Assembly: GCA_041481445.1 (NCBI GenBank)
Contig: JBGPBV010000016.1
Span: 12,432 to 76,431, forward strand
Direction: 5' to 3'
Length of the DNA stretch: 64,000 nt
Origin: Vicinamibacteria bacterium
GTDB lineage: Bacteria; Acidobacteriota; Vicinamibacteria; Fen-336
Position numbers and translations under genes: made by a program. Positions 25,691 to 64,000 of the stretch are shown here, piece by piece. The notes beneath the pieces are model-generated. The model saw nothing but the letters and a program-made list of their open reading frames with translations. It was not told the origin of the DNA and ran no database searches. Position 1 is the first letter of the stretch; each line of letters opens with the position of its first letter.

Positions 25691-26526
25691 GGACCTGTCT
25701 CCCGTCGGCTCGATGTGCTGGATTGCTCGTGGAAGGCCGCTGCTTCCGGAACGGAGAGCTCGACCTCCCTGCGGAGGCGCTCGTCGTCCCCGCATCGGAG
25801 ACCGTGGAGCACGCGACGGGCTTCATCGGTCGCGCGTCCCATGACGGCGAGGACCTGTTCGAGACGCGTGCGGTCCGGCGAGCCCTCGGGCAGGTGATTC
25901 ACGGCCAGATGGAGCTGCATCGACACGCTCAGGAATCCCTGGAGGAGCGTATCGTACAGCTCCTGCGCGATTCTCGCGCGCTCCGCCAGCCGTTCGTCCG
26001 AGCGCGCGTCGAGCTCCCGCGCGAGCTGCCGCAAGCGATAGCGGTGGAGACCGACCGCTCCCAGCACCGCCACCGCGAGGCAAGCGACCCAGAACCACGG
26101 GGCCTTCCACCAAGGCGGCGCGCCGTCCCTGACGGTGAGAGCGGCCACCCCGCCTCCGATCCCGGGGAGGGACGGCGTTCGCGCGAGGGGACGGTACTCC
26201 GCATCGACGAGGAGGGCAGCATACTCCGTTCCGAGGTGCGTCGAGCTCCTCCAGGTGGAGTCGGCCTGGATGGCCGTGAAGGGCTGGTCCGCGAACGGCT
26301 GCACGTACCAGTCTCCGCTCCGGGCATAGAGGACGATCCGTTGCCCGCTGCGCGCGCCCGACACCCGGCCCGCGATGGCTCCGAGGCGGACGGTGCCGCC
26401 CTCGTCCGCCGGGGGCACCTGGCTCAACTTGACGACGGGTCCGGCGGCCATCGCCGGCGGACGCGTCCTCGCAAGGAGGATGACGGCGCAGAGGAGGGCG
26501 ATTGTGCTCGCCCTCGGCCACGTCAT
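25687..26526 (-). CDS. membrane pseudo-sensor: periplasmic domain plus TM plus HisKA_3-like dimerisation domain with His->Tyr, and no ATPase domain
   Basis: ATG at 26526 overlaps the upstream TGA (ATGA). The signal/TM, periplasmic domain and second TM are followed by ERLAERARIAQELYD, where the codon is TAC (Y) at the conserved His. The ORF then ends 50 aa later without a HATPase_c domain. Its stop overlaps the response-regulator ATG. Confidence 0.65.
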   Translation of the reverse strand: MTWPRASTIALLCAVILLARTRPPAMAAGPVVKLSQVPPADEGGTVRLGAIAGRVSGARSGQRIVLYARSGDWYVQPFADQPFTAIQADSTWRSSTHLGTEYAALLVDAEYRPLARTPSLPGIGGGVAALTVRDGAPPWWKAPWFWVACLAVAVLGAVGLHRYRLRQLARELDARSDERLAERARIAQELYDTLLQGFLSVSMQLHLAVNHLPEGSPDRTRLEQVLAVMGRATDEARRVLHGLRCGDDERLRREVELSVPEAAAFHEQSSTSSRRETGP

Positions 26527-42754: not shown

Positions 42755-43800
42755 GGGAGGTATTCGAACTTCTCGATCACGACCTCCGTCCCGCGCTCCA
42801 GGGCCCGCGCGCTCCGGCGGAAGACATAGAGGTTCATGCGCACCGTCTCGTTGCCCGGGGAGGGCACGCCCGACGTGAACGTGTGCTCGGCGACCGCCGG
42901 CGCGCGGTTCTCGGGGCCAGCCCCGCGGACGGTCCGGGCCATGAGGCGGCCGGGCTCCCAGCGGAGCCCGTGGGTCAGGACGCCCGGAGGCGCCACGAAG
43001 GGCCAGACGTTCGCGGCGACGTAATAGGGCTGGACCACGTACTGCGCGTTCTTCGCCGCCGGCTCGCCCCACCGGCTGACCTCGATGTCCATCTCGCGAT
43101 GGTTCTCGCTCGCGGCCGGTCCGTCCCAGGTGAACAGGGTCAGTACCACCGCCGGCTCCAGTTGCGACACGTCGCGCACGACGAACCGGTACGAGCCATA
43201 CCCGAGCCGGCGCGTGAGGCGCACTTCTGCGCAGGTCCAGCGCGGCGCCTCTCCCCCGATGCGGAGGTGCATCGCTCCGCTTCCGTCCGTCCAGGCGTTG
43301 GCGGGATCGTAGTCGTTGGTGCCGCCCCGGTCGCTGGGGGCGGCGCGGGCGATCCATTCGTATCCGCTGAACTGGATCGTGTGATGTTGGGCGCGCGCCG
43401 AGGGGTCACCCGGTGCGATCGTGACGGCCACGACGCCGCCGCCGGCAGGCGGCAACGTCTCCGTGGAGAGCGGCGGACGATATCCGGCATCGACGAGGAG
43501 GGCCGCGTACTCCGTCCCCAGGTGGGTGGAGCTCGTCCAGGTCGAGTCGGCACGGACCTCCGTGAACGGCTGCCGGGCCTCCGGCTGGACCCACCACACC
43601 CCGCTCTTGGCGAACAACACGATGCGCTGCCCGCGCTGCGCGCCGACCACGCGGCCTTCGATCACGTCGAGCGTGTCCGGTCCGCCCTTGTCCGCGGGCG
43701 GGATCCTCGTGAATTGGATCGAGGGCCCACCGTCGCCCTGGCGGCCGGCGCAGCCGGTCAGGAGGAGCCACGGTACGACCAGCAGGAGCCTGAGCCTCAC
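42751..43800 (-). CDS. lipoprotein: N-terminal domain of unknown function plus C-terminal GH16-like (concanavalin-type glycoside hydrolase) domain
   Basis: Lipobox LLLTGC. The N-domain is paralogous to the pseudo-sensor's periplasmic domain. The C-terminal domain has a GH16-type E-x-D-x-E catalytic motif (REMDIEVSRWG). Confidence 0.6.
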   Translation of the reverse strand: MRLRLLLVVPWLLLTGCAGRQGDGGPSIQFTRIPPADKGGPDTLDVIEGRVVGAQRGQRIVLFAKSGVWWVQPEARQPFTEVRADSTWTSSTHLGTEYAALLVDAGYRPPLSTETLPPAGGGVVAVTIAPGDPSARAQHHTIQFSGYEWIARAAPSDRGGTNDYDPANAWTDGSGAMHLRIGGEAPRWTCAEVRLTRRLGYGSYRFVVRDVSQLEPAVVLTLFTWDGPAASENHREMDIEVSRWGEPAAKNAQYVVQPYYVAANVWPFVAPPGVLTHGLRWEPGRLMARTVRGAGPENRAPAVAEHTFTSGVPSPGNETVRMNLYVFRRSARALERGTEVVIEKFEYLP

Positions 43801-45716: not shown

Positions 45717-47081
45717 TCAGGGGCCATGGCCAGACGCGGCGAGCGGCTCTCGACGTGCCTGGGAGACATCGTGCGCCAGCGCCTTCAGGGCGTCCGCGTA
45801 GATCTCCGAGAACGTCGGGAAGGGCTGGATCACGTCTCTCAGCACATCGAGAGGCACACGGGCGCGGATGGCCAGCGTGGCCTGCTGCAGCCACTCGCCG
45901 GCCTCGGCGCCCAGCGCGTAGGCGCCGGTGAGCCGGTCGCCGTCGCTGAGCAGGGTGAGGAATCCATTGTCCTCGGCGTAGGCGCGCGAATAGGTGGCCG
46001 TCCTCGCCACCGCCGACAGGCGGGCCGTCCCGCGGAAGCGCGCCTCCGGCGCCCCCACCGCCGCCGCTTGCGGCTCCGTGAAGACCACACGCGGTACCGC
46101 TTCGTAGTGGGCCTCACGCGACTCGCCGAGGATGTTCGCGGCGACGATGTCGGCCTGGTACTTGCCGACGTGGGTCAGCAACCAGATTCCGTTGACGTCG
46201 CCGACGGCCCAGAGACGCTCACCCGCGCGCAAACGCGCGTCGACGGGGATCCCGTGTCCGTCGGCCTGGATTCCCACGTTCTCCAGACCGAGGCCGGCGA
46301 CCCGCGGGCGACGGCCCGTCGCGACGAGGAGGCGGTCGCCGCGCACCTCGCGGCCATCTCCGAGGGCCAGGACGTAGTCCTCGCCTTCGCGTCGCGCCGC
46401 CGTGACCTTCGCGCCGAGGACGAGCTCCACTCCCTCGCGACGCAGGACCGCGCCCAGCGCCTCGCCCAGCGGGGCCGGCTCCCGGGCGAGGACCCGCTCC
46501 GCACCCTCCACCACGACGACCTCACCCCCGAAACCACGGACCGCCTGCGCGATCTCGACGGCGACGGTTCCGCCGCCGAGCACGAGCAGACGGCGCGGAA
46601 CCACCTTCATGCCGGTCGCCTCGCGGCTGCCCCAGACGCCGTCGAGCTCGCGCAGGCCCGGCACCGGCGGCACGACCGGCTCCGAGCCCGTCGCGACCAC
46701 GATGTGCTCGGCGGTGTAGCGGACGCCGTTCACCTCGACCGCACCGGTGCCCGCGATCCGGCCGCGGCCGCGCAACAGGTCGATGCCCGCGCCCGCCAGC
46801 CAGCGGACCTGGCCCGCATCGGAGTAGTCCGAAACCATGACGTCGCGCCAGGCCAGCGCGGCCGGGACGTCCACCTCTGCCCTCGCCGCCGCCTCCCGCG
46901 CCGCCCGCGCCGCCTGGCCGGGACGCAGCAGCGTCTTGGAAGGGATGCACGCCCAGTAGGAGCATTCGCCTCCCACCAGCTCGCGCTCGACGACGGCCAC
47001 GCGCAGGCCGCCCTCCGCCAAGGCGCCGGCGCAGTGCTCGCCGGCCGGCCCGCCGCCGATGACGATGACGTCGTAGTGCAT
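45717..47081 (-). CDS. class-I pyridine-nucleotide-disulfide FAD oxidoreductase (dihydrolipoamide-dehydrogenase/glutathione-reductase family)
   Basis: ATG at 47081 ([15 protein letters not shown]). Redox-active [13 protein letters not shown]. Second Rossmann [13 protein letters not shown]-terminal dimerisation domain. Confidence 0.85.
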
Positions 47082-47107
47082 GACGCCTCCTCCAGGACGC
47101 GAAGGGC

Positions 47108-48181
47108 CTAGTCGATCCGCAGGCTTTGTTCCATCGAGTAGCACTGGTCCCAGACGTAGATGTCGAAGGCGGCGAGCCTGGCCGACCACTTCGGCGTCAG
47201 CCGCTCGACGCACTGCGCCGCCACCCGGTCGATGTAGTTGTCGAAGACCGCCCACGGGTTCGACTTGTCGAGCGGATTCAAGCCCTCACCGGGCTTGGTG
47301 GTGGCCAGGGCCGTGCCCGCCGCCTGCTTCACGTCCGCATAGAATTGCGCCTGCACGTCCACGTCGGCATGGGTACCCGTACGCGCGACATGGCCTCCCA
47401 CCAGCGTGTCCCAGTCCATCTTGCGGATCTCTTCCACCTGGGCGATGGAGCGTTGTACGTCCTGAGCCACCGCGAAACGACGCCACGGCATCCAGCCCGG
47501 GAAGACCACGTCGACGACCATCAGCACCCGCTGGGCGGGCGCGGAGATGAAGATGTTGCCCGGCTCGTGTGCATTGCCGTGGTACGAGAGCTCGAGCACC
47601 TGGCTGCCGGCGCGGAGGGTATAGCGGTCGGCGAACGTCACCGTGGGCAGGGGCCGGTTCGGATCGGCCGCACGCTTGAGCAGCCGGAGGGTTTCCTCGT
47701 GCGCGATGACGACGGGATGACCGCCGAGGGCCTTGATGCCCGCGATGTGGTCGGTGTGCGAATGGCTGTAGACGACGTGCGTGATCGGCCGGTCGGTGAC
47801 CTCGGCGATGGCCTGCGGAATGTGCGCGGCGTAGCCCGGGGGCGCGTCGATCACCACGACACCGCTCTCGTACACCAGGAACATCGACTGGTACGCGCCG
47901 TCCGTGACCATGTAGAGGCCCTTGCCCAGGTCCTGGCGGCGATAACCCTTGGCGGGGTCGATGGCCGGCCCCTGGGCCGAGGCGGGCACGTCCATGTACT
48001 TGCCGATTCTCACCCCGATCGGGGCGATCGCGGGCATGCCCGGGTAGGGTTCCCCGGCTGCCCCCGGGACCACGGCCGAGTCCGCGGAAGCGGCGTTCGT
48101 CGTCGCCGCGGGTCCGTTGAGGACGGCGAGGGCCACCGCCAAGGCCAACACGCCGGCGCCGAGCTTGATCGTCGTCGTCAT
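47108..48181 (-). CDS. secreted metallo-beta-lactamase-fold hydrolase
   Basis: A GGAGGA RBS precedes the ATG at 48181. Signal peptide. HSHTDH zinc motif. Confidence 0.8.
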   Translation of the reverse strand: MTTTIKLGAGVLALAVALAVLNGPAATTNAASADSAVVPGAAGEPYPGMPAIAPIGVRIGKYMDVPASAQGPAIDPAKGYRRQDLGKGLYMVTDGAYQSMFLVYESGVVVIDAPPGYAAHIPQAIAEVTDRPITHVVYSHSHTDHIAGIKALGGHPVVIAHEETLRLLKRAADPNRPLPTVTFADRYTLRAGSQVLELSYHGNAHEPGNIFISAPAQRVLMVVDVVFPGWMPWRRFAVAQDVQRSIAQVEEIRKMDWDTLVGGHVARTGTHADVDVQAQFYADVKQAAGTALATTKPGEGLNPLDKSNPWAVFDNYIDRVAAQCVERLTPKWSARLAAFDIYVWDQCYSMEQSLRID

Positions 48182-48220
48182 GTGATCCTCCATTCTGGAC
48201 GCCTGCGCGATCTGACCACA

Positions 48221-48316
48221 CGCTCGAACACCGAAACCATTGGACGAAAGTGTCGGTCGAAACCGATACCAAAGTCCGATGGACGAACCGCCCTCGCCGC
48301 GCGCATCCTGACCGCC
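48221..48316. repeat. intergenic cassette C: ATTGGACGA-N-ACCGATACCAA-N-GATGGACGA-N16-GCGCATCCT
   Basis: Same architecture and about 75% identity to 54741..54848. Lies in the MBL/VOC divergent region. Confidence 0.65.
48280..48309 (+). promoter_or_regulatory. putative sigma70-like promoter (-35 TGGACG, 18-nt spacer, -10 CATCCT) of the VOC gene, embedded in cassette C
   Basis: The -35/-10 hexamers are conserved in position and sequence with cassette D. Lies 72 nt upstream of ATG 48381. Confidence 0.3.
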
Positions 48317-48380
48317 AACCATGGAAGCCGCGATTGAGACGGATGCATCCCATACAAACGATCAGGAGAGAGAGGCCACG

Positions 48381-51136: not shown

Positions 51137-52168
51137 TCAAATGCCGTCGACGTCGATGACCGCCCGGGCGAACGCTTCGGGCGCCTCCTGGGGAACGTTG
51201 TGCCCAATGCCGTCGAGGATCCGGTGCGCGTGCTTGCCGGCGAACTGCCGGGCATAGGGCGCGCCATCCGCGGCGGCGCCGTCGAAATCACTGCCAATGG
51301 TGATGGCCGGCACCGTGATGGCGGGACGCCGGAACAGCTTCTGCTCCAGGTCCTCGTATCGGGATTCACCCTTGGCCAGGCTCAGCCGCCAGCGGTAGTT
51401 GTGGATCACGATCGCGACGTGATCGGGGTTGTCGAAGGAAGCCGCCGTGCGGTCGTACGTCGCGTCGTCGAAGTCCCACTTGGGCGAGGCGATCTTCCAG
51501 ATGAGCTTGTTGAACTCGTACCAGTTCCGGCGGTAGCCGAGCTGGCCACGCTCCGTCGCGAAGTAGTACTGGTACCACCATCCCCATTCCGCCTTCGGCG
51601 GCAGGGGCTGCTGGTTGGCCTCCAGGTTCACGATCAGGTAGCCGCTGACCGACACGATCCCCTTGCAGCGCTCGGGCCAGAGGGCGGCCATGATGTCGGC
51701 CGTCCGCGCCCCCCAGTCGAAGCCGGCGACGATCGCCTTCTGGACGCCGAGCGCATCCATCAAGGCGAGGATGTCGGCCGCGATCGCCGACTGCTGGCCG
51801 TTGCGGAACGTGTCGGCGGAAAGGAATCGCGTCGTGCCATAGCCGCGCAGGAAGGGCACGATCACCCGGTATCCCTCGGCCGCCAGCAAGGGCGCCACGT
51901 CCACGTAGCTGTGGATGTCGTAGGGCCAGCCGTGGAGGAGAACGACGGCGGGGCCACTCCTGGGGCCTGCTTCGGCGTACCCCATGTTCAGCAGCCCCGC
52001 CTCGACCTGCCGGATCGGGCCGAGCGACGTGTTCGTTCCCGGCTTGCGCTCGCCCATTCGCGGCGCTGCCTGGGCGGACTGCGCGAGCGGGGAGCCCATG
52101 GCGAGCTCGGCCACGGTCAGTGCCGCGGCTCCCATGAAGCGGCGGCGATCGAGCTCGATCCCCGTCAT
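51137..52168 (-). CDS. Tat-exported alpha/beta hydrolase (epoxide-hydrolase-like)
   Basis: RRRFMGAAAL twin-arginine signal. LLHGWPYD and GFDWGA motifs. Its ATG overlaps the upstream stop (ATGA). Confidence 0.8.
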   Translation of the reverse strand: MTGIELDRRRFMGAAALTVAELAMGSPLAQSAQAAPRMGERKPGTNTSLGPIRQVEAGLLNMGYAEAGPRSGPAVVLLHGWPYDIHSYVDVAPLLAAEGYRVIVPFLRGYGTTRFLSADTFRNGQQSAIAADILALMDALGVQKAIVAGFDWGARTADIMAALWPERCKGIVSVSGYLIVNLEANQQPLPPKAEWGWWYQYYFATERGQLGYRRNWYEFNKLIWKIASPKWDFDDATYDRTAASFDNPDHVAIVIHNYRWRLSLAKGESRYEDLEQKLFRRPAITVPAITIGSDFDGAAADGAPYARQFAGKHAHRILDGIGHNVPQEAPEAFARAVIDVDGI

Positions 52169-52746
52169 AGGATCTCGTCGATCCGGTGCACCGCTCCGTC
52201 CGGGCGCGTTTCGCCGACACCGACGCTGATGATGCGATTCAGGAATGCGTACGTCTCCGCCGAGGTCTCGAACCTCGGCACCGTTCGGAAGTAGTAGCGC
52301 GCGGGATCGACGACCTCTCCACGCCCGAGGGCGGCGATCGCGTCCGGGGGGCCGTGACGGAGCCCCTGGAACGTCATGTAGATCAGCCCATGGTCGTCCG
52401 TCTCCAGCGTGATGCGCAGGTCCAGCTCCAGGACGCCGTCGGAGCGCAGCAACAGCCAGTCCCCTCCCCCGGGCAGGATCTTTCCGCGCAGTCGCGGGCC
52501 TTCGAAGTCGCCGCCCGTGACCGGCACGATGATGCGCGTGCCATGGGGCACCGTGCCGAGCTTCTGCGGCGGAGCGGCGGTGATCCTCACCGTCATCAGT
52601 GGTCGCGAGTTCATGGCGGGCTGTCTCCCCTTCGCGGCGGCGGGGGCGCCATCGGCGGCGGCCCTCGGCGCAAGTCCCGGCAGGGCGCTCGCGGCCCCGG
52701 CAACGAGAGGGGCCGCCACGGCCTTGAGCACGTCTCGGCGAAACAT
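52165..52746 (-). CDS. DUF3237-family protein with Tat signal
   Basis: MFRRDVLKAVAAPLVAGAASALP. Paralog of the next gene. Confidence 0.65.
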   Translation of the reverse strand: MFRRDVLKAVAAPLVAGAASALPGLAPRAAADGAPAAAKGRQPAMNSRPLMTVRITAAPPQKLGTVPHGTRIIVPVTGGDFEGPRLRGKILPGGGDWLLLRSDGVLELDLRITLETDDHGLIYMTFQGLRHGPPDAIAALGRGEVVDPARYYFRTVPRFETSAETYAFLNRIISVGVGETRPDGAVHRIDEIL

Positions 52747-52748
52747 GA

Positions 52749-53198
52749 CTAGAGGATTTCCTCGATCGTATAGATCGGTCCGTTCGCGCGGCGATCGCCC
52801 GACGCGATGGCGATCACGCCGTTCAGGTAGGCGTACTGCGGCGCGCTCGTCTCGAACCGTGGCGCGGTCCGGAAGTAGTACCTGGACGGATCGACGGACT
52901 CGCCTCGCGCCAGCGCCGCGAGCACGTCCGCGGAGCCGTGACGGAAGCCGAACGACGACATGTTGATCAAGGCGCCGTCGTCCGTCTCCAGCGTGATCCT
53001 GAGATCGAGCTCCAGCACGCCGTCCGCCCGCAAGAGCGTCCAGTCCCCTCCGCCCGGCAGGACCTTGCCGCGCAGCCGCGGGCCGTCGAAGCTGCCGCTG
53101 GTGATCGGCGCGATGACGCGTGTTCCATGCGGCACCGCGCCGAGCCTTTGCGGCGGAGGGACGACGACCCGCAGCGTCATCAGCGGACGTGAAGTCAT
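52749..53198 (-). CDS. DUF3237-family protein (cytoplasmic paralog)
   Basis: About 149 aa. Roughly 70% identical to the C-terminal 150 aa of 52165..52746, indicating tandem duplication. Confidence 0.65.
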   Translation of the reverse strand: MTSRPLMTLRVVVPPPQRLGAVPHGTRVIAPITSGSFDGPRLRGKVLPGGGDWTLLRADGVLELDLRITLETDDGALINMSSFGFRHGSADVLAALARGESVDPSRYYFRTAPRFETSAPQYAYLNGVIAIASGDRRANGPIYTIEEIL

Positions 53199-54514: not shown

Positions 54515-54560
54515 GTCGGATTCCTTTCTCAGGCGCTCACCCCGCCGGTCCGAGGGGATC

Positions 54561-54660
54561 GGTGGCGCGCGAAGACACCGACAAGATCGTCCCGCGGGCC
54601 CGGATGTTCCATTGGACGATGGTGTCGGCGATACCTTCGTATCGGTCGCGACGGTCACGC
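54561..54660. repeat. intergenic cassette A (about 100 nt) with CCATTGGACGA and the 7-1-7 imperfect palindrome GGTGTCGGCGATACC
   Basis: About 80% identical over roughly 100 nt to 60619..60712. Lies between the EH1 start and the SDR fragment. Confidence 0.7.
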
Positions 54661-54770
54661 CTTGTCTGCGTAGGCTCTGTTGTCCACGGGCACGAGTCCG
54701 CGGATCATCTGGCCGCCGTCCACGACGAAGGTCTGCCCCGTGGCGTACGAGGCGGCGTCCGATTTATTGG
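54655..54770 (-). pseudogene. C-terminal fragment of an SDR-family oxidoreductase
   Basis: ...ASYATGQTFVVDGGQMIRG...* is the canonical SDR C-terminus. The upstream part of ORF 54655..55008 is non-coding-like. Confidence 0.4.
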
Positions 54771-54848
54771 ACGATGGCATCGATCCCACCTGAACCGATA
54801 CCAACGTCTGATGGACGATTGCGCTGTGGATGCGCATCCTTTGCCGGG
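54741..54848. repeat. intergenic cassette D (paralog of C) upstream of the SRPBCC gene
   Basis: Sequence: ATTGGACGAtggcatcgatcccacctgaACCGATACCAAcgtctGATGGACGAttgcgctgtggatGCGCATCCT. Confidence 0.65.
54812..54840 (+). promoter_or_regulatory. putative sigma70-like promoter (-35 TGGACG, 17-nt spacer, -10 CATCCT) of the SRPBCC gene, embedded in cassette D
   Basis: Same arrangement as in cassette C. Lies 47 nt upstream of ATG 54887. Confidence 0.3.
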
Positions 54849-54886
54849 ACGCCGCCTCCGAATGGCGGGTCAAGCAAGGAGCACGC

Positions 54887-55336
54887 ATGTCCACGATCCA
54901 TCTCCACCAGACGACCACCGTGACGCCCGAGCAGTTCGTGGCCGGGCTCACCGACTTCGGGCCGGGCCGCTCGAAGCTGTTTGGCAACAGCGCCGACGAG
55001 TACCTCAAGGTGCATCACCAGGCCTCCAAAGAGGCCGACGTCACCGAGGGATCGGGGGGTATCTGGGAACGCCTGCACTACGACTGGTCCGACCCCAACC
55101 GCGTCGTCCTCACGACGACCGACTCCAACCTGTGGGGAGGCGCTTCCGGCCACACCTACACCTTCACGCGGCAGCCCAACGGCACGACCGACATCGACGC
55201 CGTCGTGGTACGCGACGGCAAGAACCTCAGGGGACGGATGCTCGGCCTCGTGCTCGGGACCGTCGGCAAGGGCGTCCTGGAAAAGGCCTTTCGAAACACC
55301 GTCAAGGCCGTCGAAGCCCGAAACGCCGGGGCATAG
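54887..55336 (+). CDS. SRPBCC-family (polyketide cyclase/START-like) protein
   Basis: ATG at 54887 (MSTIHLHQTTTVTPEQFVAG). About 149 aa. Confidence 0.65.
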   Translation: MSTIHLHQTTTVTPEQFVAGLTDFGPGRSKLFGNSADEYLKVHHQASKEADVTEGSGGIWERLHYDWSDPNRVVLTTTDSNLWGGASGHTYTFTRQPNGTTDIDAVVVRDGKNLRGRMLGLVLGTVGKGVLEKAFRNTVKAVEARNAGA

Positions 55337-55399
55337 GCGCCGGCAGCCGATCGCTGACCGAACGCTGAGACGAGGTGATTGGCGTGAAGACCAATATTC

Positions 55400-56670
55400 G
55401 TGTCAATAACGCGGCCTACGAGCTCTCCGTGGGACGCCGAAGGCTCGTTCGCTTTGGAGTCGGCCATCGACGAGCTCTCGTACGCGCTGGGCATCGATCC
55501 AATCGAGCTGCGAGTGAAGAATCACGCGCACGTGCATCCGGAGAGCGGCCTGCCGTGGTCGAGCAATGCGCTGATGGACTGCTATCGACGCGGTGCGGAA
55601 CGCTTCGGCTGGTCGGCGCGCAATCCAAAGCCTCGATCGATGAGGAACGGGGGGCAGCTCGTCGGATACGGCATGGCCCGAGCGGCATTGGTCGCGTACC
55701 AGCCCCCATGCAAAGCCATCGCATCCATACGGCGCGATGGAACGGCCTTCGTTCGCAGCGGCGCGACCGATATCGGGCCGGGCCCCCCCTACACCGTGAT
55801 GACGATGCTCGCGGCGGATTGCCTTGGCGTGCCGATCGAGCGTGTGCAGTTCGGTCTGGGTGATAGCCCGATGCCGAAGGCGCCGCAGGAAGGTGGGTCC
55901 GGACTGACGGGCGCACTCGGCAACGCCGTCCAGGCGGCCTGTGTCGATCTCGTCCGCGCATTCGTGAATCGCGTCCGCGACGACGAGGCGTCTCCCCTCG
56001 AGGGATGTCGATTGGAGGGCATCACCGTTCGGGACGGAGGCATCCAGATCACCGACGATCCCGCGCGCTTCGAAACATATGCCGCCATACTCACGCGGCA
56101 CGGTCTGGACGAGATCACCATTGAAGCAGAGAGCGCGCCGCCGGGTGAGACCTCGCCCGTCACGATGATCGCCCGCGCCGGTCGCTTCGTCCCCTTCACG
56201 GCGCCGTCGACGGGCGCCCGCGCGCACGCCGGGGGATATGCCGCGCACTTCGTCGAGGTCCACGTCGATCCGGATCTCGGAACGATCCGCGTGGCGCGCG
56301 TCGTGTCGGCGGTGGATGGAGGCCGGATTCTCAACCCGAAGACGTCCCGCAGTCAGATCACCGGGGGCATGGCCGGCGGAATCGGCATGGCACTGCTGGA
56401 GGAAACCGTATCGGACCGTACCGTCGTCTGGTGAACACGTCGCTGGCCGACTATGTCGTGGCGCTGAACGCGGACGTGCGGGATGTCGATGTGCTGTTCG
56501 TGGGACAACCCGATTCAATGACCCCCCTCGGAACAAAGGGGGTCGGGGAGCTCGCCATCGCCGGGATGGCGGCCGCAATCGCCAATGCGGTCTATCACGC
56601 GACGAGCACGCGGGTCCGCTCGTTGCCGCTCTCCATCGAGAAGGTGCTCGGACAGGAGTCCTCCCGTTGA
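55400..56670 (+). pseudogene. N-terminally truncated, frameshifted molybdopterin-binding subunit of a xanthine-dehydrogenase/CO-dehydrogenase-family oxidoreductase
   Basis: Only the C-terminal roughly 420 aa are present. A -1 frameshift at about 56425 (ACCGTCGTCTG where ACCGGTCGTCTG would restore ...SDRTGRLVNTSLADY...). Just upstream, about 16 codons resembling the start of a 2Fe-2S small subunit (VKTNIRVNNAAYEL) lie out of frame. Confidence 0.7.
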
Positions 56671-56686
56671 AGCAGGAGATCAGGAG

Positions 56687-57568
56687 ATGTCGATGACAAC
56701 GGCAGCCAGCAACACGACGGCCCCAACGCAGCTCCTCCGAGGGAGAAGCGAGACGTACGCGTATCGCCGTTTCGGCGGCGGACCCGCACGTCCCTTGCTG
56801 TTTCTCCAGCACTTCACCGGGACGCTCGACAACTGGGATCCTGCCGTGACTGATCCGCTCGCAACAGAGCGAGAAGTCATCTTGTTCGATAGCGCAGGCG
56901 TAGGGCGGTCAACCGGCAAGGTGCCCGTCACGGTAGCCGGAATGGCGGCGCATGCGCTGGACTTCCTGGACGGCTTGGGGTTGGACAGATGTGATGTCCT
57001 CGGATTCTCGCTCGGCGGAATGGTCGCGCAGCAGATGGCGCGGGACCGCCCCTCGATGTTCCGCCGGATGATTCTCGTGGGGACCGCGCCGCGCGGCGGC
57101 GACGACATCATGCACCTGGAGAAACCGAGTCTGGCCAGGCACCTTGGTGATCCGACCCTCAAGGGATACGCAGTGTTGCCGAAGCTTTTCTTTGCGCCGA
57201 CGTCGTCGAGCCAGGCGGCCGGCGGGGCGTTCATCGAGAGGCTGGCACAACGAAGCGAGGACCTCGACACCGCATCCGGACCGGCCGTCGCCGCCGCGCA
57301 GATGGCGGCGTTCCGTGAGTGGGAGCAGTCTACGGGGACCCGCTTCGGCGATCTCGAGGGCATCCTTCAGCCCACCCTCGTCGTCAATGGCATCTACGAC
57401 GAAATGATTCCCGTCGCGAACTCCTATCGGTTGGCCGAGAACCTTCCGAACGCCGTACTTCTCGCGTACCCGGACTCCGGACACGGTTCCCTCTTCCAGT
57501 TTCACGACTCCTTCACCCGGCACGCGGCGGCATTCCTCGCGTCGGACTCGCCGTTCGCACCCTACTGA
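56687..57568 (+). CDS. alpha/beta hydrolase
   Basis: An AGGAGATCAGGAG RBS precedes the ATG at 56687. GFSLGG nucleophile motif. Confidence 0.8.
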   Translation: MSMTTAASNTTAPTQLLRGRSETYAYRRFGGGPARPLLFLQHFTGTLDNWDPAVTDPLATEREVILFDSAGVGRSTGKVPVTVAGMAAHALDFLDGLGLDRCDVLGFSLGGMVAQQMARDRPSMFRRMILVGTAPRGGDDIMHLEKPSLARHLGDPTLKGYAVLPKLFFAPTSSSQAAGGAFIERLAQRSEDLDTASGPAVAAAQMAAFREWEQSTGTRFGDLEGILQPTLVVNGIYDEMIPVANSYRLAENLPNAVLLAYPDSGHGSLFQFHDSFTRHAAAFLASDSPFAPY

Positions 57569-57569
57569 G

Positions 57570-58382
57570 TCAGGTCGCCCACCATCCGGGCCAGCGCCAG
57601 CTCCGCGTCCCGCGTCTGGGAAGCCGCGCTCCATCGCGGCCCCGAACCGGCCTTGCGTCTCGGGGCTGCACGCGCCCTCGCCGAAGAGCTCGGAATCGCG
57701 ACGGAAGTCCTCGGCCGGAGCAAGCGCGATGGCATTGATCCGGTCCTTGAGCGCGACCGGGCCGGCGGCCGGAAACCCGGCGATCCGTTGCGCGAGCGAT
57801 CGCACGAAATCGCCGAGAGCGCTGGCGGGCAACGCCCGGTTGATCCAGCCGTACCGTTCCGCCAGGTCCGCGTCGCAATCCTCCGCGCTCAACATGACTT
57901 CGAGCGCCCGCCCGCGGCCCATGAGACGCGTCAAGTGCTGGACACCGCCCGCGCCGGGGATCAGGCCGAATGCCTGCTCCGGCTGCCCGAAAATCGCCGA
58001 CTCTCGCGCGGCAAAGCGCATGTCGCACCGCCAGCACGAACTCGCTGCCCGCGCCGCGCACGCGTCCCTCGATCTGGGCGATGGTGACGAAGCGGCTTGC
58101 GCTCAGGTGGCGAAACAGGAGGCCGATCGACGCTTCGCCGGTCAGCTTCGCCGCCTCCTGCCGGTACTCGCCTATCCGCGTCACATCGACGTGTGAAATG
58201 AAATAGTCGGGGTCGGCGCTCGTGAACACGAGCACCCGGACCGCGTCGTCGGCCTCGGCCCGCTGAATCAGGGACACCAGATCGCGGACCATTTCGGGCC
58301 CGAGGAGGTTCGTGGGCGGGGCCGCAATGGCAACGAACAGAACGGCCCCTTGCTGGCGCACCGTGAGGGTCTCGAGAGCCAT
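57570..58382 (-). pseudogene. enoyl-CoA hydratase/isomerase (crotonase) gene with +1 frameshift
   Basis: The N-terminal 120 aa are in one frame (MALETLTVRQQGAVLFVAIAAPP...GAGSEFVLA). The continuation CDMRFAARESAIFGQPEQAFGLIPGAGG... is in another frame, caused by an extra G at about 58030 (CTGGCGGTGCGAC). No in-frame stop lies at the expected C-terminus. Confidence 0.6.
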
Positions 58383-58390
58383 GGCGACTC

Positions 58391-59677
58391 CTACCGCAAC
58401 GACCGGAACGCCGCCCGGACCTCTTCGGAGAACAGCTGCGGCTGCTCCCAGGCCGCGAAGTGACGGCCCTTGTCCACCTCATGGAAGTAGATCAGGTTGC
58501 GGTACGTTCTCTCCACCCAGGTTCGTGGCGCACGCCAGATCTCGCCGGCGAAGACCGTGAATGCCGTGGGAACGGTGACGTCCCCCTTGTAAACGAGGCG
58601 CGCGTTCTCCCAGTAGAGCCGCGCGGCGGACGCGCCCGTGTTGGTGACCCAGTAGAGCGTGATGTTGTCGAGGATCTCGTCTCGCGTCAGTTCGCCCTCG
58701 GGGTGTCCTTCGAAGGCGTGCGCGATTTGCTCATAGGAGTGCGGGTCGTGATCGAGCATCCAGGCGGCGAGGCCGGCGGGGGTCTCCGCGAGGCTGTAGC
58801 CTATGGTCTGCGGGCGCGTGGCCTGCATGGCGAGATAGGCCAGAGCCAGGGCACTGCGTTGATCGAAAGCGGCCTTCTCCTTCTCGGATAGTCCGGCTGG
58901 CGCCGGGTCGTGCGTGGCGACCGCCCGCGAGATCTCCGGCGGGATGTTCAAGAGCAGGTTCATGTGGATGCCCAGCAGGCCCGGCGGCGCCTGGCGCGCC
59001 AGCGCCTCCGAGACTTTCGCGCCCCAGTCGCCGCCCTGCGACACGTAGCGCGTGTAGCCCAGGCGCTTCATCAACGTGTCCCAGGCGCGGGCGATGCGGT
59101 CGGTGTTCCAGCCGGCCGTGGTCGGTTTGCCTGAAAACCCGTAGCCCGGCATGGACGGAATCACCACATCGAACGCGTCCGACGCGCTCCCGCCATGTGC
59201 CGTGGGATTGGTGAGGAGATCGATGATCTTCAGCTCCTCGATGATCGAGCCAGGCCATCCGTGCGTGACGATGAGCGGCAAGGCATTCTTGTCTTTCGAA
59301 CGAACGTGAATGAAATGGATGTCCAGCCCATCGATCGTCGTCACGAACTGGGGCAAGGCATTGAGCTTTGCCTCCGCCTTCCGCCAGTCGTAGTCGGTCT
59401 GCCAGTAGCGCACCAGCTCCTTCATCGTCGCCGACTGGACGCCCTGCGATTGATCCGTAACCGTTTCCTGGTCGGGCCACCGGGTCGCGGCCAGGCGCCG
59501 CCGGAGGTCGACGAGCGTCTCTTCCGGAACGTGGACCTGGAAGGGACGGATGGCGCTGTCGTTGCCGCCCGCGGCCACGGCCGCCGTCCCCGTCGGCAGC
59601 CCGATCACCATCACCATGAACATGACGGTGCCGATTCGGTGTGCCACGCGGTGGGCCGGTCGTTCGAGTGGCTTCAT
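58391..59677 (-). CDS. epoxide hydrolase, paralog of 53213..54514
   Basis: About 75% identical to EH1 over the full length. Signal peptide. Confidence 0.85.
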   Translation of the reverse strand: MKPLERPAHRVAHRIGTVMFMVMVIGLPTGTAAVAAGGNDSAIRPFQVHVPEETLVDLRRRLAATRWPDQETVTDQSQGVQSATMKELVRYWQTDYDWRKAEAKLNALPQFVTTIDGLDIHFIHVRSKDKNALPLIVTHGWPGSIIEELKIIDLLTNPTAHGGSASDAFDVVIPSMPGYGFSGKPTTAGWNTDRIARAWDTLMKRLGYTRYVSQGGDWGAKVSEALARQAPPGLLGIHMNLLLNIPPEISRAVATHDPAPAGLSEKEKAAFDQRSALALAYLAMQATRPQTIGYSLAETPAGLAAWMLDHDPHSYEQIAHAFEGHPEGELTRDEILDNITLYWVTNTGASAARLYWENARLVYKGDVTVPTAFTVFAGEIWRAPRTWVERTYRNLIYFHEVDKGRHFAAWEQPQLFSEEVRAAFRSLR

Positions 59678-59694
59678 TGCGATGTCCTCCACAC

Positions 59695-59765
59695 ACATGA
59701 AACCAGACGCGCAACGTCCGATCCATTAGACTAAGGTATCGACGACACTCTCGTATCGCTCCACC
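59695..59765. repeat. intergenic cassette E (inverted core GGTATCGACGACACT plus CCATTAGAC) upstream of EH2
   Basis: The core 15-mer matches B in reverse orientation. Flank halves are shared with A. Confidence 0.55.
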
Positions 59766-59787
59766 GCCTGTGCGGCGGAGGTCAAGC

Positions 59788-60468
59788 TCAGAACCTGTCG
59801 GCCTGGGGATCCCAGAACGTGTCCGTCAGGCCGATCCGCGCGAAGATCTGCCTGATCTCGCTCGCGTCAGGCCGATGCGCTTGGGGGCTCAGACGGTTCG
59901 AATACCACGCCATGGCCATCTGCCAGAGCTGTGGAAGCGTCGCCGTGGGGCGCCGCGGCTGTTGGAGCGCGGTGCACCAGTCGTTCAATGCCTCTTCCGA
60001 CCGGAAGAACAGCATCAGGCTTCAAGTGAACACGATGTCGTTCCACCATTTCGACGCGGGAACGACGCAGTGGAACCGCCATCCCGAAGACGGCGGCCCG
60101 TCCGGGGTCAGATGAAGGACAAGCGGTTCGAGTGTCTGCTCGCAACGGGAGAGAACGCTACCGGTCCCGCCCAGCGCGGCGACGACACCGAACGCGTCCC
60201 ACGCGCAGTTTGCGAAGTACTCCGCTGCGTTCACCGTCGCCCGATGCTGGGTGGGGACGCCGGAAAACGGCGGTGCCATCCGAATGGATGCGAAATCGCC
60301 AGCGGGCAAGAGCATTCGTTTGGCGTACAGCCGGCGATACCCGTCCCGGACTTGCTCGCTCGTGGCGCCGACCGCCTCGCGCATGGCATCCAGCGTTGGA
60401 GACTGACCCGTGGTCGCGAAATGCCGATACACGGCCGTCCGCAAGGTCACATCAAAGGTGTCGTCCAC
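59788..60468 (-). pseudogene. alkylmercury-lyase (MerB)-like gene disrupted into two ORFs
   Basis: ORF 60022..60468 matches MerB through ...NCAWDAFG...RFHCVV. ORF 59788..60015 in another frame continues MLFFRSEEALNDW.... About 36-40 non-homologous nucleotides lie between the two. Confidence 0.5.
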
Positions 60469-60618
60469 ACTTCACTCCGATGTCTTCCACGCACATGATA
60501 CCAGGACACGCGACGCTCGATGTTGCGGGAAGTCGTTGACAGGAACTGCGTTGGCGGTGGATGACGCGCACCTCAGCCGCGCCGTCCACCGCACGGCCTT
60601 TGAACTACCGTCGCCAGC

Positions 60619-60712
60619 GGCGCGAAGACGCCGGACACGATGGCCCCGCGAGCCCAATGTTCCATTGGACGAAGGTGTCGTCGATACCTTCGTCCCGGTC
60701 GCGACGGTGGCC
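60619..60712. repeat. intergenic cassette B (paralog of A) with GGTGTCGTCGATACC
   Basis: Directly compared with A. Lies between the MerB-like start and the SDR 60726..61457 stop. Confidence 0.7.
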
Positions 60713-60725
60713 CGCTCCGCTAGCG

Positions 60726-61457
60726 CTAGCCGGCCACGAGCTGCTGCCCGCCGTCGATGTCGTAGGTCGCGCCCGTGAGGGCGGTGTTGATCATGATGTG
60801 TACGGCGAGCGCGGCGACGTCGGCCGGTCCGACGACACGCCGGATGGGAAGCGTGGCGCGGAGCTGATTGCGGCGGTCTTCGAGCTGATCGCCGAGGAGC
60901 GATGCCGACAACGGTGTGTCCACGAAGCCGGCGGCGATGAGGTTGACTCGGACGGGTGCGAGCTCGAGCGCGAGGTTCTTCGTCAGGGCGGGAAGCGCGG
61001 CGGTGAGAGCCGAGATGAACGCGAGTCCCGCCGCCGGGCGGCGGCCACCGGTGCCGCCCATGAAGAGCAGGGTCCCTCCCGGACGAACCTTGCTCGCGGC
61101 GTTCCGGGCGACCTGCAGCGGCAGCAAGAGATGGGCGTCCACGTCCCGGCGTGCCGCTTCCACGTCGAACGCCGCCAGCGGCGCGTAGTAGGGACCGGGG
61201 CCCGTGACCAGCACGTGGTCGATCGGCCTGGGCAGCTCGTGGAAGAACCTCCCGAGCCGTTCGAAGTCGGTGGCGTCGAAGGCGGTGATGCGGGCCCCAA
61301 GCTCGAGGCCGGCGCGGTGCAGGCGATCCGGGTCGCGCGCGGTGAGGATCACGTCGGCTCCCTCGGCGCGGGCGCGCCGGGCCGTCTCGAGGCCGATGCC
61401 CGAGCTGCCGCCGATCACGACGACAGTCTGCCCGGCGAGCTCAGGCTTGCCGCTCAT
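60726..61457 (-). CDS. SDR-family oxidoreductase
   Basis: VVVIGGSSGIG Rossmann motif. C-terminal YDIDGGQ. Confidence 0.85.
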   Translation of the reverse strand: MSGKPELAGQTVVVIGGSSGIGLETARRARAEGADVILTARDPDRLHRAGLELGARITAFDATDFERLGRFFHELPRPIDHVLVTGPGPYYAPLAAFDVEAARRDVDAHLLLPLQVARNAASKVRPGGTLLFMGGTGGRRPAAGLAFISALTAALPALTKNLALELAPVRVNLIAAGFVDTPLSASLLGDQLEDRRNQLRATLPIRRVVGPADVAALAVHIMINTALTGATYDIDGGQQLVAG

Positions 61458-61589
61458 GGTCGTTCCTTTGCGCCCTCACTTGACCGGCACGGACCTCTTT
61501 CTGGTCGCACCACCATGGTGCAGGAACAGAGTAGAGCGCGCACCCATTCGCAGGCGTCCCACGATCGAGTGCTTGTGCGCTACGTCGGG

Positions 61590-61730
61590 CGCGAAGGCGG
61601 CGACATACACGAATCCCGCCACCTCTGCATCCTACCCGGCTTCGGTAATCACCGCACCGCCGTAGGAGTGGCCGACGAGGATCACCGGGCCGCTCACCGC
61701 GGTAGAGGGGGTGTGCGTTTCTCTTTGATC
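61590..61730 (-). pseudogene. fragment of an alpha/beta hydrolase paralogous to 24050..24841, with in-frame stop
   Basis: The DNA at 61600-61700 is about 80% identical to 24480-24580. It translates to GPVILVGHSYGGAVITEAG*DAEVAGFVYVAAFAPD with no flanking coding frame. Confidence 0.5.
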
Positions 61731-61778
61731 AATCGCGGGAGCTACGAACGCCGTGCTCGCCGCTCGGCCGCCGCTCCC

Positions 61779-62714
61779 TCAGCGCTCGGGGGCGTCGCGG
61801 GCGAGGGCCAGGACCGGGGCGCGCGGCAGCGCCGGTCTCGGCGTGACCGAGGGCGCGGGGGAAGCCGCGGGTGCCCTGGGGTCCAGGCGCGCCTGCCGCA
61901 CTCCCATCGCCACGAGCAGTCCGTTGAGGATCGCCTGCGGCCGCGGCGGGCACCCCGGAACGTAGACATCGACCGGGAGCACGTGGTCGACGCCTCCGAT
62001 GGAGGCATAGGTGCCTTCACCGAAGATCCCGCCACTGCATCCGCAGGCGCCCACGGCGACGACGACCCGCGGCTCCGGCGCCGCTTCGTAGGTCCTCACG
62101 AGCGCGATCTCCATGTTCCGCGTGACGGGGCCGGTGACGAGGAGGAGGTCCGCGTGCCGTGGGCTGGCCACGAAATGGATGCCAAAGCGTTCGAGGTCGA
62201 AGACCGGATTCGCGGTGGCCGTGATCTCGAGCTCGCAACCGTTGCAGCTCCCGGCGTCCACCTCGCGGACGTGAAGCGAGCGTCCCAGCAACCCATGGAT
62301 CCGCGCGCGGAGGCGAGCCGCGGACTCCCCGAGCCCGGGACCGGGTTGAACCTCCATGTGCGTGAACCGGGCGAGGCCCGTGCCGTCCACTTCGAACGAC
62401 GCGGTCTGCGTGAGCTGCTCGCGGGTGTAGGCGGCGACGTCGACGTCGTGTCCGGAGGCCACCACTTGCGGCGGACACGCGTCCACGCACTCACGGCACT
62501 GGATGCAGGCGGCATAGGACAGCGAGAGCTGCCGGCGGTCGGGGGCGGGCGCCTTGAGCTGGATGGCGCCCGTGGGGCAGGCGCGCGCGCACTGCTCGCA
62601 GGCGGTACAGCGGGCGAAATCGATCACGGGGAAACCGAACGGCGGCCTGGCTCGGAACGGGTCCGCCTTCGTCACCACTCCGGTCTTGAGGCTCTTCGAC
62701 AGGATGCGGAACAC
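61779..62714 (-). CDS. fusion of 2x[4Fe-4S] ferredoxin (HycF/NuoI-like) with hydrogenase-small-subunit/NuoB-like (HycG-like) domain
   Basis: A GGAGGAG RBS precedes the GTG at 62714. Ferredoxin clusters CTACEQCARACP and CIQCRECVDACP. Then GSCNGCELE, GACGCSGG and GCPPRP cluster motifs, nearly collinear with E. coli HycG. Confidence 0.8.
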   Translation of the reverse strand: MFRILSKSLKTGVVTKADPFRARPPFGFPVIDFARCTACEQCARACPTGAIQLKAPAPDRRQLSLSYAACIQCRECVDACPPQVVASGHDVDVAAYTREQLTQTASFEVDGTGLARFTHMEVQPGPGLGESAARLRARIHGLLGRSLHVREVDAGSCNGCELEITATANPVFDLERFGIHFVASPRHADLLLVTGPVTRNMEIALVRTYEAAPEPRVVVAVGACGCSGGIFGEGTYASIGGVDHVLPVDVYVPGCPPRPQAILNGLLVAMGVRQARLDPRAPAASPAPSVTPRPALPRAPVLALARDAPER

Positions 62715-62722
62715 GTCTCCTC

Positions 62723-64000
62723 CTAGAGGTCGTTGCCGGAATAGGACAGGTTGAAGCTCTTGTTGATCACCGGAAAGTCGGGAAGGATGTTGCCGGGCAC
62801 CGCGTGCGCGAGCCCCTGCCAGTTCTTGAAGCTCGGATCCGTCACCTTGACCCGGCGGAGGCGTCCCTCTCCATCCGTCTGGACCCAGTGCAGGCACTCG
62901 CCGCGCCAGCCTTCGGCCCAGCCGACGGCCGAGGAGGAAGGCGGCAGCGCGTCCGGCAACGGGCTCGACACCCCCCCCTCGGGCAGGTCCTCGAGCACGT
63001 GGCGGAGGATGTCCAGGGACTGCTCCACCTCGCGCGCGCGGATCATGAAGCGGGCGCGGACGTCTCCTCCCTCCTCGACGGGGACGACGAAGCGCAGCCC
63101 CGCGTAGGCGTCATGAGGCTGGTCGCGCCGGAGGTCGAGGTCGAGGCCGGACGCCCGCCCGGCCAGGCCGACGACGCCGAAGTCCCGGGCGACGTGCGTC
63201 GGCAGGATGCCCGTCCCGTCGACGCGGTCCGTGAAATTGCCGGAGTCGACGAGCAGCGTCACCAGATCGTCGAACTCGCGCTGCAGCCCCTCGAGCTCCA
63301 GCAGGATCTCGCGGCGGCGGCCGAGGGCGAGGTCGCACTTCACGCCCCCGAGGGCGACGGTGCCGCGCAGCGTGCGTGAGCCGAACAGGCGCTCCTGCAT
63401 GCTGACGAGCCCCTCGCGCAGGATCTGGGCGCGCGCGGCGGGAACCGTGAACGCCACGTCGGTGGCGATGCCGGCGATGTCGGCGACGTGGTTGTAGACG
63501 CGCTCGAGCTCGAGGAGGACGACGCGCAGGTGTCGTGCCCGCGGCGGCGGCTCGACTCCGGCGAGCCGCTCGATCGCGTGCGCAAAGGCCAGGGCGTGCC
63601 CGACGGCCGTGTCGCCGGAGATCGATTCCGCGAGGAAGAGGCCGTGCCGCCAGGGCAGTCGCTCGAAGCGCTTCTCCGTGCCCTTGTGCGTGTAGAACAG
63701 CCGGACCTGCAGGTAGAGGATCGGCTCGCCGGCGACGCCGAACCGGAAGTGACCGGGCTCGATGATGCCCGCGTGGACCGGTCCGACCGGGACATGGAAC
63801 ACGCCCTCTCCCGTCACCGGCCGATAGGGACGGGCCTGTCCCCCGACGCGCGGGACGACCTGGCGGTCGTCGAGATCCTTCCGGAGCGGCCAGACGTTCT
63901 CCGGCCAGTCGTCGTGAAGAGCCACACGGCTCCGGTTGGGATGGCCCTCGGGCACGAGGCCGAAGTAGTCCATGACCTCGCGCTCGAACCAATTGGCCAC
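62723..64000 (-). CDS. NuoC-NuoD-fused hydrogenase-large-subunit-like protein (HycE-like) lacking NiFe-ligand cysteines; 5' end outside window
   Basis: GPVHAGIIEPGHFRF and ELERVYNHV blocks as in HycE. The N-terminal RxCGxC site reads AESISGDTAV and the C-terminal DPCxxC reads NLSYSGNDL. The ORF is open to the window end. Confidence 0.85.
   Translation of the reverse strand: MANWFEREVMDYFGLVPEGHPNRSRVALHDDWPENVWPLRKDLDDRQVVPRVGGQARPYRPVTGEGVFHVPVGPVHAGIIEPGHFRFGVAGEPILYLQVRLFYTHKGTEKRFERLPWRHGLFLAESISGDTAVGHALAFAHAIERLAGVEPPPRARHLRVVLLELERVYNHVADIAGIATDVAFTVPAARAQILREGLVSMQERLFGSRTLRGTVALGGVKCDLALGRRREILLELEGLQREFDDLVTLLVDSGNFTDRVDGTGILPTHVARDFGVVGLAGRASGLDLDLRRDQPHDAYAGLRFVVPVEEGGDVRARFMIRAREVEQSLDILRHVLEDLPEGGVSSPLPDALPPSSSAVGWAEGWRGECLHWVQTDGEGRLRRVKVTDPSFKNWQGLAHAVPGNILPDFPVINKSFNLSYSGNDL

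Follow-up and report, generated by a model that had tools for sequence, protein, structure and literature searches.

We analysed a 64,000-nucleotide stretch of contig JBGPBV010000016.1 (assembly GCA_041481445.1) from a Vicinamibacteria bacterium, hereafter called the window, and focused on a group of hydrolase and oxidoreductase genes that surrounds a gene for a protein related to the organomercurial lyase MerB. The original prediction had described the MerB-like gene as split at about 60015-60030, in a region of gene decay. Our results showed that its sole interruption is a conserved in-frame TGA at 60022-60024 with no frameshift, and that the gene is a predicted selenoprotein gene in which this TGA is the codon for selenocysteine (Sec, U), as judged from comparison with homologous loci. 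The stretch as a whole is very probably a mosaic of hydrolase and oxidoreductase genes that has met with several local accidents and that includes this one misread selenoprotein gene.

Translation of the minus strand from 60468 to 59788 gave one frame with a single TGA (...WWNDIVFT*SLMLFFRSEEALNDWC...), open on either side, and the Pfam MerB match (PF03243, E = 1.8e-23) spans the TGA, covering residues 68-189. Database proteins end at this point: the 120 closest ones (60-91% identity) are nearly all about 148 residues long with about 65% query cover, every stub inspected ends in ...DIVFT, and of the 150 best representatives of 50%-identity clusters, 108, with identities down to 31%, terminate exactly at the residue before the TGA, while read-through with Cys was seen in none of these 150. 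At the DNA level, codon 149 was TGA in all 30 genome loci found by tblastn, which cover at least seven phyla (from Acidobacteriota, Gemmatimonadota, Planctomycetota, Verrucomicrobia, Bacteroidota, Polyangiaceae and Anaerolineales), and in nearly all of them the match crosses the TGA and reaches the end of the 226-residue query, spanning residues 1-226 in most. The same codon was TGA in 79 out of 79 further metagenome loci, which form a more divergent branch and continue with x-T-M/I-L-L-F-R-S-E-E. Three distant homologues, from an archaeon, an unclassified bacterium and a member of Chloroflexota (L032, L033 and L034), carry TGC (Cys) there, and the U/Cys column is invariant in the family alignment. 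Protein identity among 28 sequences was 60% downstream of the TGA versus 57% upstream. TGA is also the commonest ordinary stop in the window, ending 22 of the 36 supported genes, and the genome therefore does not reassign it. A scan for in-frame stops flanked by coding signal found no other credible selenocysteine candidate.

The transcript downstream of the TGA contains a hairpin of the selenocysteine insertion sequence (SECIS) type. It begins 12 nt past the UGA, places 19 nt between the UGA and a 4-nt loop starting with GG, and has a minimum free energy (MFE) of −12.7 kcal/mol; in the window copy, a lower stem extends it. The GGUC loop and the spacing resemble those of E. coli fdhF. Codons 154-159, which encode the hairpin, showed a mean relative synonymous entropy of 0.20 versus 0.71 elsewhere, a value as low as that being found in only 2 of 200,000 random column sets. 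The codons are close to frozen: Arg is CGG in 27 of 28 sequences, Ser is TCG in 27 of 27, and Glu is GAA although GAG dominates the rest of the gene, with the choice between GAA and GAG tracking the pairing partner. Across 103 sequences, 96.6% of cells were paired and three of the seven stem pairs showed compensatory changes, with none of 500 shuffles reaching as high. At one pair C-G alternates with U-A (48 vs. 29). The closing pair turns from C-G to U-A or A-U in five sequences, through an Arg-to-Trp change combined with a Ser change that is silent, and the third case is a single C-G to G-C. The published description of bacterial SECIS elements (PMC13188914) gives a loop of 3-9 nt starting with G, a stem of 4-16 bp, a UGA-to-loop distance of 16-37 nt and an MFE of −7.5 kcal/mol or lower, and the MerB-like hairpin lies within all four ranges. 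Compared with the consensus from the same source, it has the GG-starting 4-nt apical loop and an upper stem of 6-7 bp, whereas it lacks a bulged U in its conserved 7-bp stem and consists of family-specific coding sequence (L/F-F-R-S-E-E). Rare database variants without selenocysteine were also seen, namely P0108, with Cys and a 3-residue deletion over the hairpin, and P0507, with Ser at the U position; they could be cases of selenocysteine loss or sequencing errors.

A family profile made from full-length members, with U written as C, matched Bacillus megaterium MerB2 (5c17, E = 6e-22) and E. coli MerB (E = 2e-11). In the profile alignment, N-C-a-W-D falls onto MerB Cys96/Asp99 and T-U onto Cys159, which puts C88, D91 and U149 on the catalytic triad. 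The window protein thus shares the fold and the triad positions Cys96, Asp99 and Cys159 with MerB (E. coli R831b, PDB 1S6L/3F0P; B. megaterium MerB2, PDB 5C17), but it has Sec in place of Cys159 and an extra conserved C-terminal tail (RRPxPDEMRxIFxxxGLxGxFWDP). In the mechanism that we propose, SelB with Sec-tRNA(Sec) would bind the hairpin and selenocysteine would be inserted at UGA149 to give a 226-residue enzyme, whose Cys88/Asp91/Sec149 triad may cleave a carbon-metal bond (of an organomercurial or another organometal) by protonolysis in the manner of MerB; this putative substrate is deduced from the conserved triad only. As separate observations, 20 repeats in a 4119-residue database protein (P0386) match the winged-helix-like N-terminal part of the MerB-like protein (residues 11-73), and a class-I flavoprotein disulfide reductase gene lies at 45717-47285 on the minus strand (dihydrolipoyl dehydrogenase 295 bits, MerA 289 bits, below both cut-offs), adjoining a metallo-beta-lactamase-fold gene at 47108-48322 on the same strand, 13 kb from the MerB-like gene.

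One selenoprotein of this fold has been described before. SaoL (NF040728; Haft & Gwadz, bioRxiv 10.1101/2022.07.06.499078), a protein of strict anaerobes with a C-U motif and the marker of a nine-gene SAO locus, likewise combines the PF03243 fold with selenocysteine at the MerB Cys159 position. In contrast to the C-U of SaoL, the window family has mostly T-U; at some loci Asn, Ala or Ser takes the place of the Thr, but Cys never does. Its hosts are Acidobacteriota, Gemmatimonadota, Planctomycetota and others of soil-type metagenomes instead of strict anaerobes, and a counterpart of the SAO locus is lacking, with no recurrent neighbour in 102 loci. SaoL is the sole entry for the MerB fold in the May 2026 inventory of prokaryotic selenoproteins, MerB is not mentioned in the main text of the BSepDB paper, and NCBIfam release 20 holds no model for the MerB-like selenoprotein family. 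The window family would represent a second Sec-containing clade of the MerB fold, distinct from SaoL, which was the only catalogued MerB-like selenoprotein found.

Several results weigh against the reading of the gene as a selenoprotein gene for a MerB-like enzyme. The fold energy of the 66-nt region is no better than that of shuffled sequences (z = −0.03), and the case for the hairpin therefore rests on conservation and covariation; Rfam returned no match to SECIS or any other RNA family at gathering or permissive thresholds. The genes selA, selB and selD and a tRNA-Sec gene were not found in the 64-kb window, and no tRNA gene was present in the 20 related loci scanned, about 6 kb on each side of the MerB-like gene; the Sec-decoding capacity of the genome is therefore putative. 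The protein fell far short of the equivalog cut-offs for MerB (35 vs. 200 bits for NF033555, and 31 vs. 193 bits for NF009710) and of the SaoL cut-off (28 vs. 140 bits for NF040728, with only residues 29-118 aligned). No neighbour family recurred in more than 3-4 of the 102 loci, and the same was true in a set of 31 loci. The context therefore gives no functional clue and the substrate is a guess; a mer operon context (merR, merA, merT/P) was likewise not seen in the 102 loci, and the window offers only the unassigned disulfide reductase gene 13 kb away.

Two other explanations of the TGA were weighed. It might be a true stop or be read through without selenium, giving either two chains (148 residues plus a piece re-initiated at Met152) or one chain made with a near-cognate tRNA, and most loci, the window included, indeed have an ATG two codons past the TGA. 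This explanation is very unlikely, because several loci (e.g. L040, L041, L043 and L047) have an Ile codon, ATC or ATA, in place of that ATG, codons 150-151 are conserved at the protein level, the Cys homologues are single chains, the stop falls exactly on the catalytic Cys position, and the hairpin fits the SelB-type SECIS model. A pseudogene killed by a nonsense mutation, which the in-frame stop, the true pseudogenes 1.4 kb and 3.4 kb away and the lack of visible Sec machinery in the window might suggest, is scarcely credible, since the identical TGA occupies the same codon in 109 independent loci from several phyla, the downstream part is conserved as well as the upstream part, distant homologues have Cys at the TGA site, the hairpin is kept and covaries, and the gene is identical between two assemblies whereas the true pseudogenes differ. 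The coordinates of the selenoprotein gene and of the features around it are collected in Table 1.

Table 1. Location of the predicted selenoprotein gene and of the surrounding features in the window.
Feature	Position	Strand	Remarks
Predicted MerB-like selenoprotein gene, intact	59788..60468	-	226 codons including Sec149; predicted triad Cys88, Asp91, Sec149
In-frame TGA, predicted selenocysteine codon 149	60022..60024	-	
SECIS-type hairpin	59987..60016	-	core stem-loop 59992-60009: UUCUUCC-GGUC-GGAAGAG
2Fe-2S small-subunit gene remnant	55384..55427	+	start codon and about 14 codons; 80% DNA identity to L039 5381-5444
Deletion junction	55428..55430	.	about 2.5-kb deletion, 3-4 bp microhomology (TGG)
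Pseudogene of Mo-binding large subunit (PaoC/XDH family), C-terminal about 55%	55431..56670	+	1-nt deletion 56422/56423; extra CCC 55787-55789
Crotonase/enoyl-CoA hydratase pseudogene	57562..58382	-	two +1 insertions, G at 58028-58029 and C at 57618-57620; reads in three frames
Epoxide hydrolase EH1, intact, 433 aa	53213..54514	-	Pfam EHN 1-106/107 and Abhydrolase_1; 433-aa gene call on L036
Possible SRPBCC-fold protein, intact ORF, 149 aa	54887..55336	+	weak fold-level support
Alpha/beta hydrolase, intact, 291 aa	56693..57568	+	Abhydrolase_1 2-242/245; gene call on L036
Epoxide hydrolase EH2, intact, 428 aa, EH1 paralogue	58391..59677	-	Pfam EHN and Abhydrolase_1
SDR oxidoreductase, intact, 243 aa	60726..61457	-	Pfam adh_short_C2 5-234/236; NCBIfam PRK07041 4-240/240
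Orphan SDR 3' end	54655..54770	-	encodes ...SDAASYATGQTFVVDGGQMIR...; best PDB match E = 0.001
Alpha/beta-hydrolase fragment, 39 codons (119 nt)	61584..61702	-	GHSYGG nucleophile elbow, in-frame TAG
25-bp palindrome, copy 1 (ACGAtGGTGTCGgCGATACCTTCGT)	54616..54640	.	upstream of EH1; inside repeat D6
25-bp palindrome, copy 2	59730..59754	.	sequence match in window
25-bp palindrome, copy 3, perfect match	60669..60693	.	between SDR and MerB-like gene

The lesions in the aldehyde oxidase/xanthine dehydrogenase (XDH) operon are of another kind. To the left of the junction the remnant encodes VKTNIRVNNAAYELS, and the 2Fe-2S subunit of the intact orthologous operon starts with VKTHIRVNDTTHELS. Window positions 55364-55427 align to the small-subunit gene on contig L039, over its ribosome-binding region and initial codons, where the operon has the intact-type order of small, FAD and Mo subunits, and positions 55431-56661 align about 2.5 kb further on. 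DNA alignment to L039 revealed a clean deletion of about 2505 bp, the left flank matching up to position 5444 and the right flank from 7950, which agrees with an earlier claim of about 16 small-subunit codons at 55384 next to a large internal deletion. In the Mo-subunit remnant, the 344-residue open reading frame (ORF) at 55400-56434 had Pfam matches to MoCoBD_2 and to the last 30 positions of MoCoBD_1 only, and the remnant aligned to positions 354-541 of 735 of the PaoC model. When a G was restored after 56422, the reading changed from ...DRTVVW* and a next frame to ...EETVSDRTGRLVNTSLADY..., in unbroken alignment to residues 372-775 of 775 of 5y6q_C; the orthologues are intact at this spot and read DRTGRL. 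The loss of about 350 N-terminal residues and the −1 frameshift near 56425 that had been reported for this subunit were thus both borne out, as it matches PaoC from 354 onward and 5y6q_C at 372-775 only, with one G missing at 56422/56423. The remnant is 89% identical to the intact orthologues P0121 (738 aa) and P0510 (768 aa), while the extra CCC (Pro) is present in the window and absent from the assembly contig L036 and from the orthologues.

With respect to the three-subunit aldehyde oxidase PaoABC (PDB 5G5G, 5Y6Q), the window remnant aligns to the last 404 residues of the large chain; the intact orthologues keep the small-FAD-Mo order, whereas the window copy lacks about 2.5 kb and is frameshifted in what remains. 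The XDH remnant is a pseudogene, with its frame broken relative to intact close orthologues, and the 2.5-kb deletion is enough by itself to inactivate the operon. We also considered whether a truncated XDH form of about 400 residues is common to relatives, and dropped the idea, the operon on the one inspected contig (L039) being broken by assembly frameshifts. Assemblies named 'MFD' or 'contig_N', probably from long reads, contain frameshifted copies of the MerB-like gene and fragmented XDH operons (L030 6001-6670; P0111; L038 and L039), and some of the 'truncated' XDH database matches of about 400 residues are therefore probably assembly artefacts.

In the crotonase gene, removal of the G at 58028/58029 restored ...EFVLACDMRFAARE..., and removal of the C at 57618-57620 restored ...RGFQTRDAELALARMVGDLTQ*. 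The corrected protein (272 aa) gave one continuous ECH_1 match of 117 bits, versus 42 and 50 bits for the separate pieces, and was 80-89% identical, across 99-100% of its length, to more than 100 intact orthologues of 272-273 residues. The junction motifs LACDMRF and RGFQTRD are invariant among four aligned orthologues. The extra G that the original prediction placed near 58030 is real, but it is not the sole lesion. The crotonase gene is thus also a pseudogene, its frame being broken in comparison with intact close orthologues. Programmed frameshifting was rejected for both crotonase and XDH, in view of two shifts in one gene, intact orthologues without any shift and an XDH operon already deleted.

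The reality of the lesions was checked by comparison between assemblies. The window is 99.94% identical along 13.3 kb to a contig (L036) of an NCBI metagenome-assembled genome (MAG; GCA_041499675.1), with five single-nucleotide polymorphisms (SNPs) and one 3-nt indel between them, and 100% identical along 8.2 kb to a JGI metagenome contig (L037). The XDH and crotonase lesions recur in both contigs. It is unlikely that the three single-base indels are sequencing or assembly errors in short homopolymers: all three do lie in runs of 2-3 identical bases, and related long-read database assemblies are full of such frameshifts (L030, L038 and L039), but the same indels are found in an NCBI contig that differs at the six sites above as well as in the JGI contig, and two insertions fall within one gene of 0.8 kb. 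No break was seen in the other large window genes, among them ORFs of 1912, 1241 and 995 codons and complete matches for phosphorylase and glucose-6-phosphate dehydrogenase (G6PD), and the XDH operon is inactivated by its deletion anyway. Against this, the samples behind the assemblies with common indels may be related and may have been sequenced with one chemistry. The two pseudogenes, together 16% of the sequence compared, hold four of the six differences that separate the window from L036 (binomial P = 0.007; small numbers), and both crotonase SNPs alter Phe residues that are invariant in four aligned intact orthologues, while the MerB-like gene has no difference. This clustering is as relaxed selection predicts, although the numbers are small.

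The pseudogenes retain 88-89% amino acid identity to their orthologues and are thus no more diverged than live genes, so their inactivation is recent and local; seven neighbouring genes are intact. The original prediction of an accessory detoxification island in reductive decay was right about two pseudogenes and two orphan fragments and wrong about the MerB-like gene, which is not damaged; of the six lesions that it listed, five proved real. 'Reductive decay of an island' is too strong a term for two local pseudogenes, 'detoxification' is a family-level guess, and our data, which support the earlier interpretation in part, show local, recent pseudogenisation with rearrangement debris among intact genes instead of a decaying island. 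A microhomology-flanked 2.5-kb deletion took out most of a paoABC/xdh-type operon; the remnant, once dead, later lost one G, and the CCC was gained in the window lineage. The crotonase gene, at the end of the EH2 operon, was inactivated by two single-base insertions. The SDR (short-chain dehydrogenase/reductase) 3' end and the alpha/beta-hydrolase fragment are debris of duplication and rearrangement, and an intergenic repeat of about 50-90 nt that bears the palindrome was copied by the same events.

The two orphan fragments support past rearrangement at this locus. All 32 PDB sequence matches of the SDR tail at 54655-54770, which had been noticed earlier, were SDR C-termini. The tail is followed by a 52-90-nt repeat that also follows the intact SDR gene at 60726, so that an SDR end must have been duplicated together with the intergenic DNA behind it. 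The alpha/beta-hydrolase copy with an in-frame TAG, first given as about 140 nt at 61590-61730, was confirmed and refined to the 119 nt of Table 1; it shows 83% DNA and 74% amino acid identity to 24464-24582. The palindrome ACGAAGGTrTCGnCGAyACCTTCGT had three matches in the window versus zero expected, and each copy, within the 52-90-nt repeat, lies about 33 nt past a stop codon and precedes EH1, EH2 or the MerB-like gene by 65-213 nt. It was absent from the other loci searched (L001-L035, L038 and L039), and it might act as an operator for a shared regulator or be an element of the repetitive extragenic palindromic (REP) type. A tandem pair of DUF3237 genes at 52165-53198 on the minus strand shares 70% DNA identity, and EH1 and EH2 share 77-81% in repeats D1 and D7. 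These paralogues point to earlier duplications within the locus.

On the minus strand from 64000 downward, the gene order is group-4-hydrogenase/complex-I-like genes, the alpha/beta-hydrolase scrap, SDR, the MerB-like gene, EH2 and crotonase. A convergent plus-strand block follows with the SRPBCC-like gene, the XDH remnant and the alpha/beta hydrolase, and after it come the SDR scrap, EH1, the two DUF3237 genes, an alpha/beta hydrolase and a redoxin gene. EH1, the SRPBCC-like gene, the alpha/beta hydrolase, EH2 and SDR had been listed as intact, and all appear so from domain matches and gene calls, but the 'SRPBCC' label is weak and fold-level only. The 149-residue protein had no match in Pfam, NCBIfam or PDB sequences, and the 50 best matches listed for its low-confidence model (pLDDT 51) include folds of the START, Bet v 1 and AHSA1 types, with TM scores of about 0.35-0.40. 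The nearest genome locus belongs to an uncultured Acidobacteriota MAG, and several near protein matches are named Vicinamibacterales. The closest genome loci (L001 and L030) have only an epoxide hydrolase gene and a redoxin gene in common with the window, with no intact XDH or crotonase gene. GC content across the window is 0.64-0.79, the region of the MerB-like, XDH and crotonase genes being at the low end (0.64-0.68).

A cluster like a group-4 [NiFe]-hydrogenase or complex I adjoins the region at 61779-64000 on the minus strand and runs on into L036 1-5853, with NuoH-like, antiporter-like, fused 30/49-kDa and fused Fer4 plus 20-kDa subunits; no formate dehydrogenase was seen beside it up to the end of the L036 contig. 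Elsewhere in the window, dispersed direct repeats of 148-227 nt with 72-76% identity (25874-26415 vs. 40281-40428 and 43475-43701) lie near two LuxR-type response-regulator genes and a histidine-kinase gene, which are probably paralogous two-component systems.

There is nothing unusual about the pseudogenes themselves, and the value of the locus is in the misread MerB-like gene. An in-frame TGA beside real pseudogenes is an easy trap, and comparison across loci tells recoding from decay. Thousands of database entries stop at residue 148, including GenBank proteins named 'organomercurial lyase' from Vicinamibacterales, and these stubs lack the catalytic selenocysteine and about 77 residues. We put forward only tentatively, as possible rather than probable, that the window protein belongs to a large and nearly always Sec-dependent family of organometal lyases, absent from the catalogues checked, spread across aerobic soil phyla (Acidobacteriota, Gemmatimonadota, Planctomycetota, Verrucomicrobia, Bacteroidota, Myxococcota and Chloroflexota) and annotated everywhere as a 148-residue stub. 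If true, selenocysteine would have been recruited to the Cys159 site of MerB a second time and independently. The presence of Sec over Cys at a metal-binding catalytic position in almost every member, in abundant soil bacteria without mer operons, points to a chemistry in which selenium is of importance (Hg-Se affinity, cleavage of a carbon-metal bond), and if the substrate is methylmercury or another organometal, the family would be a candidate for mer-operon-independent demethylation in soils.

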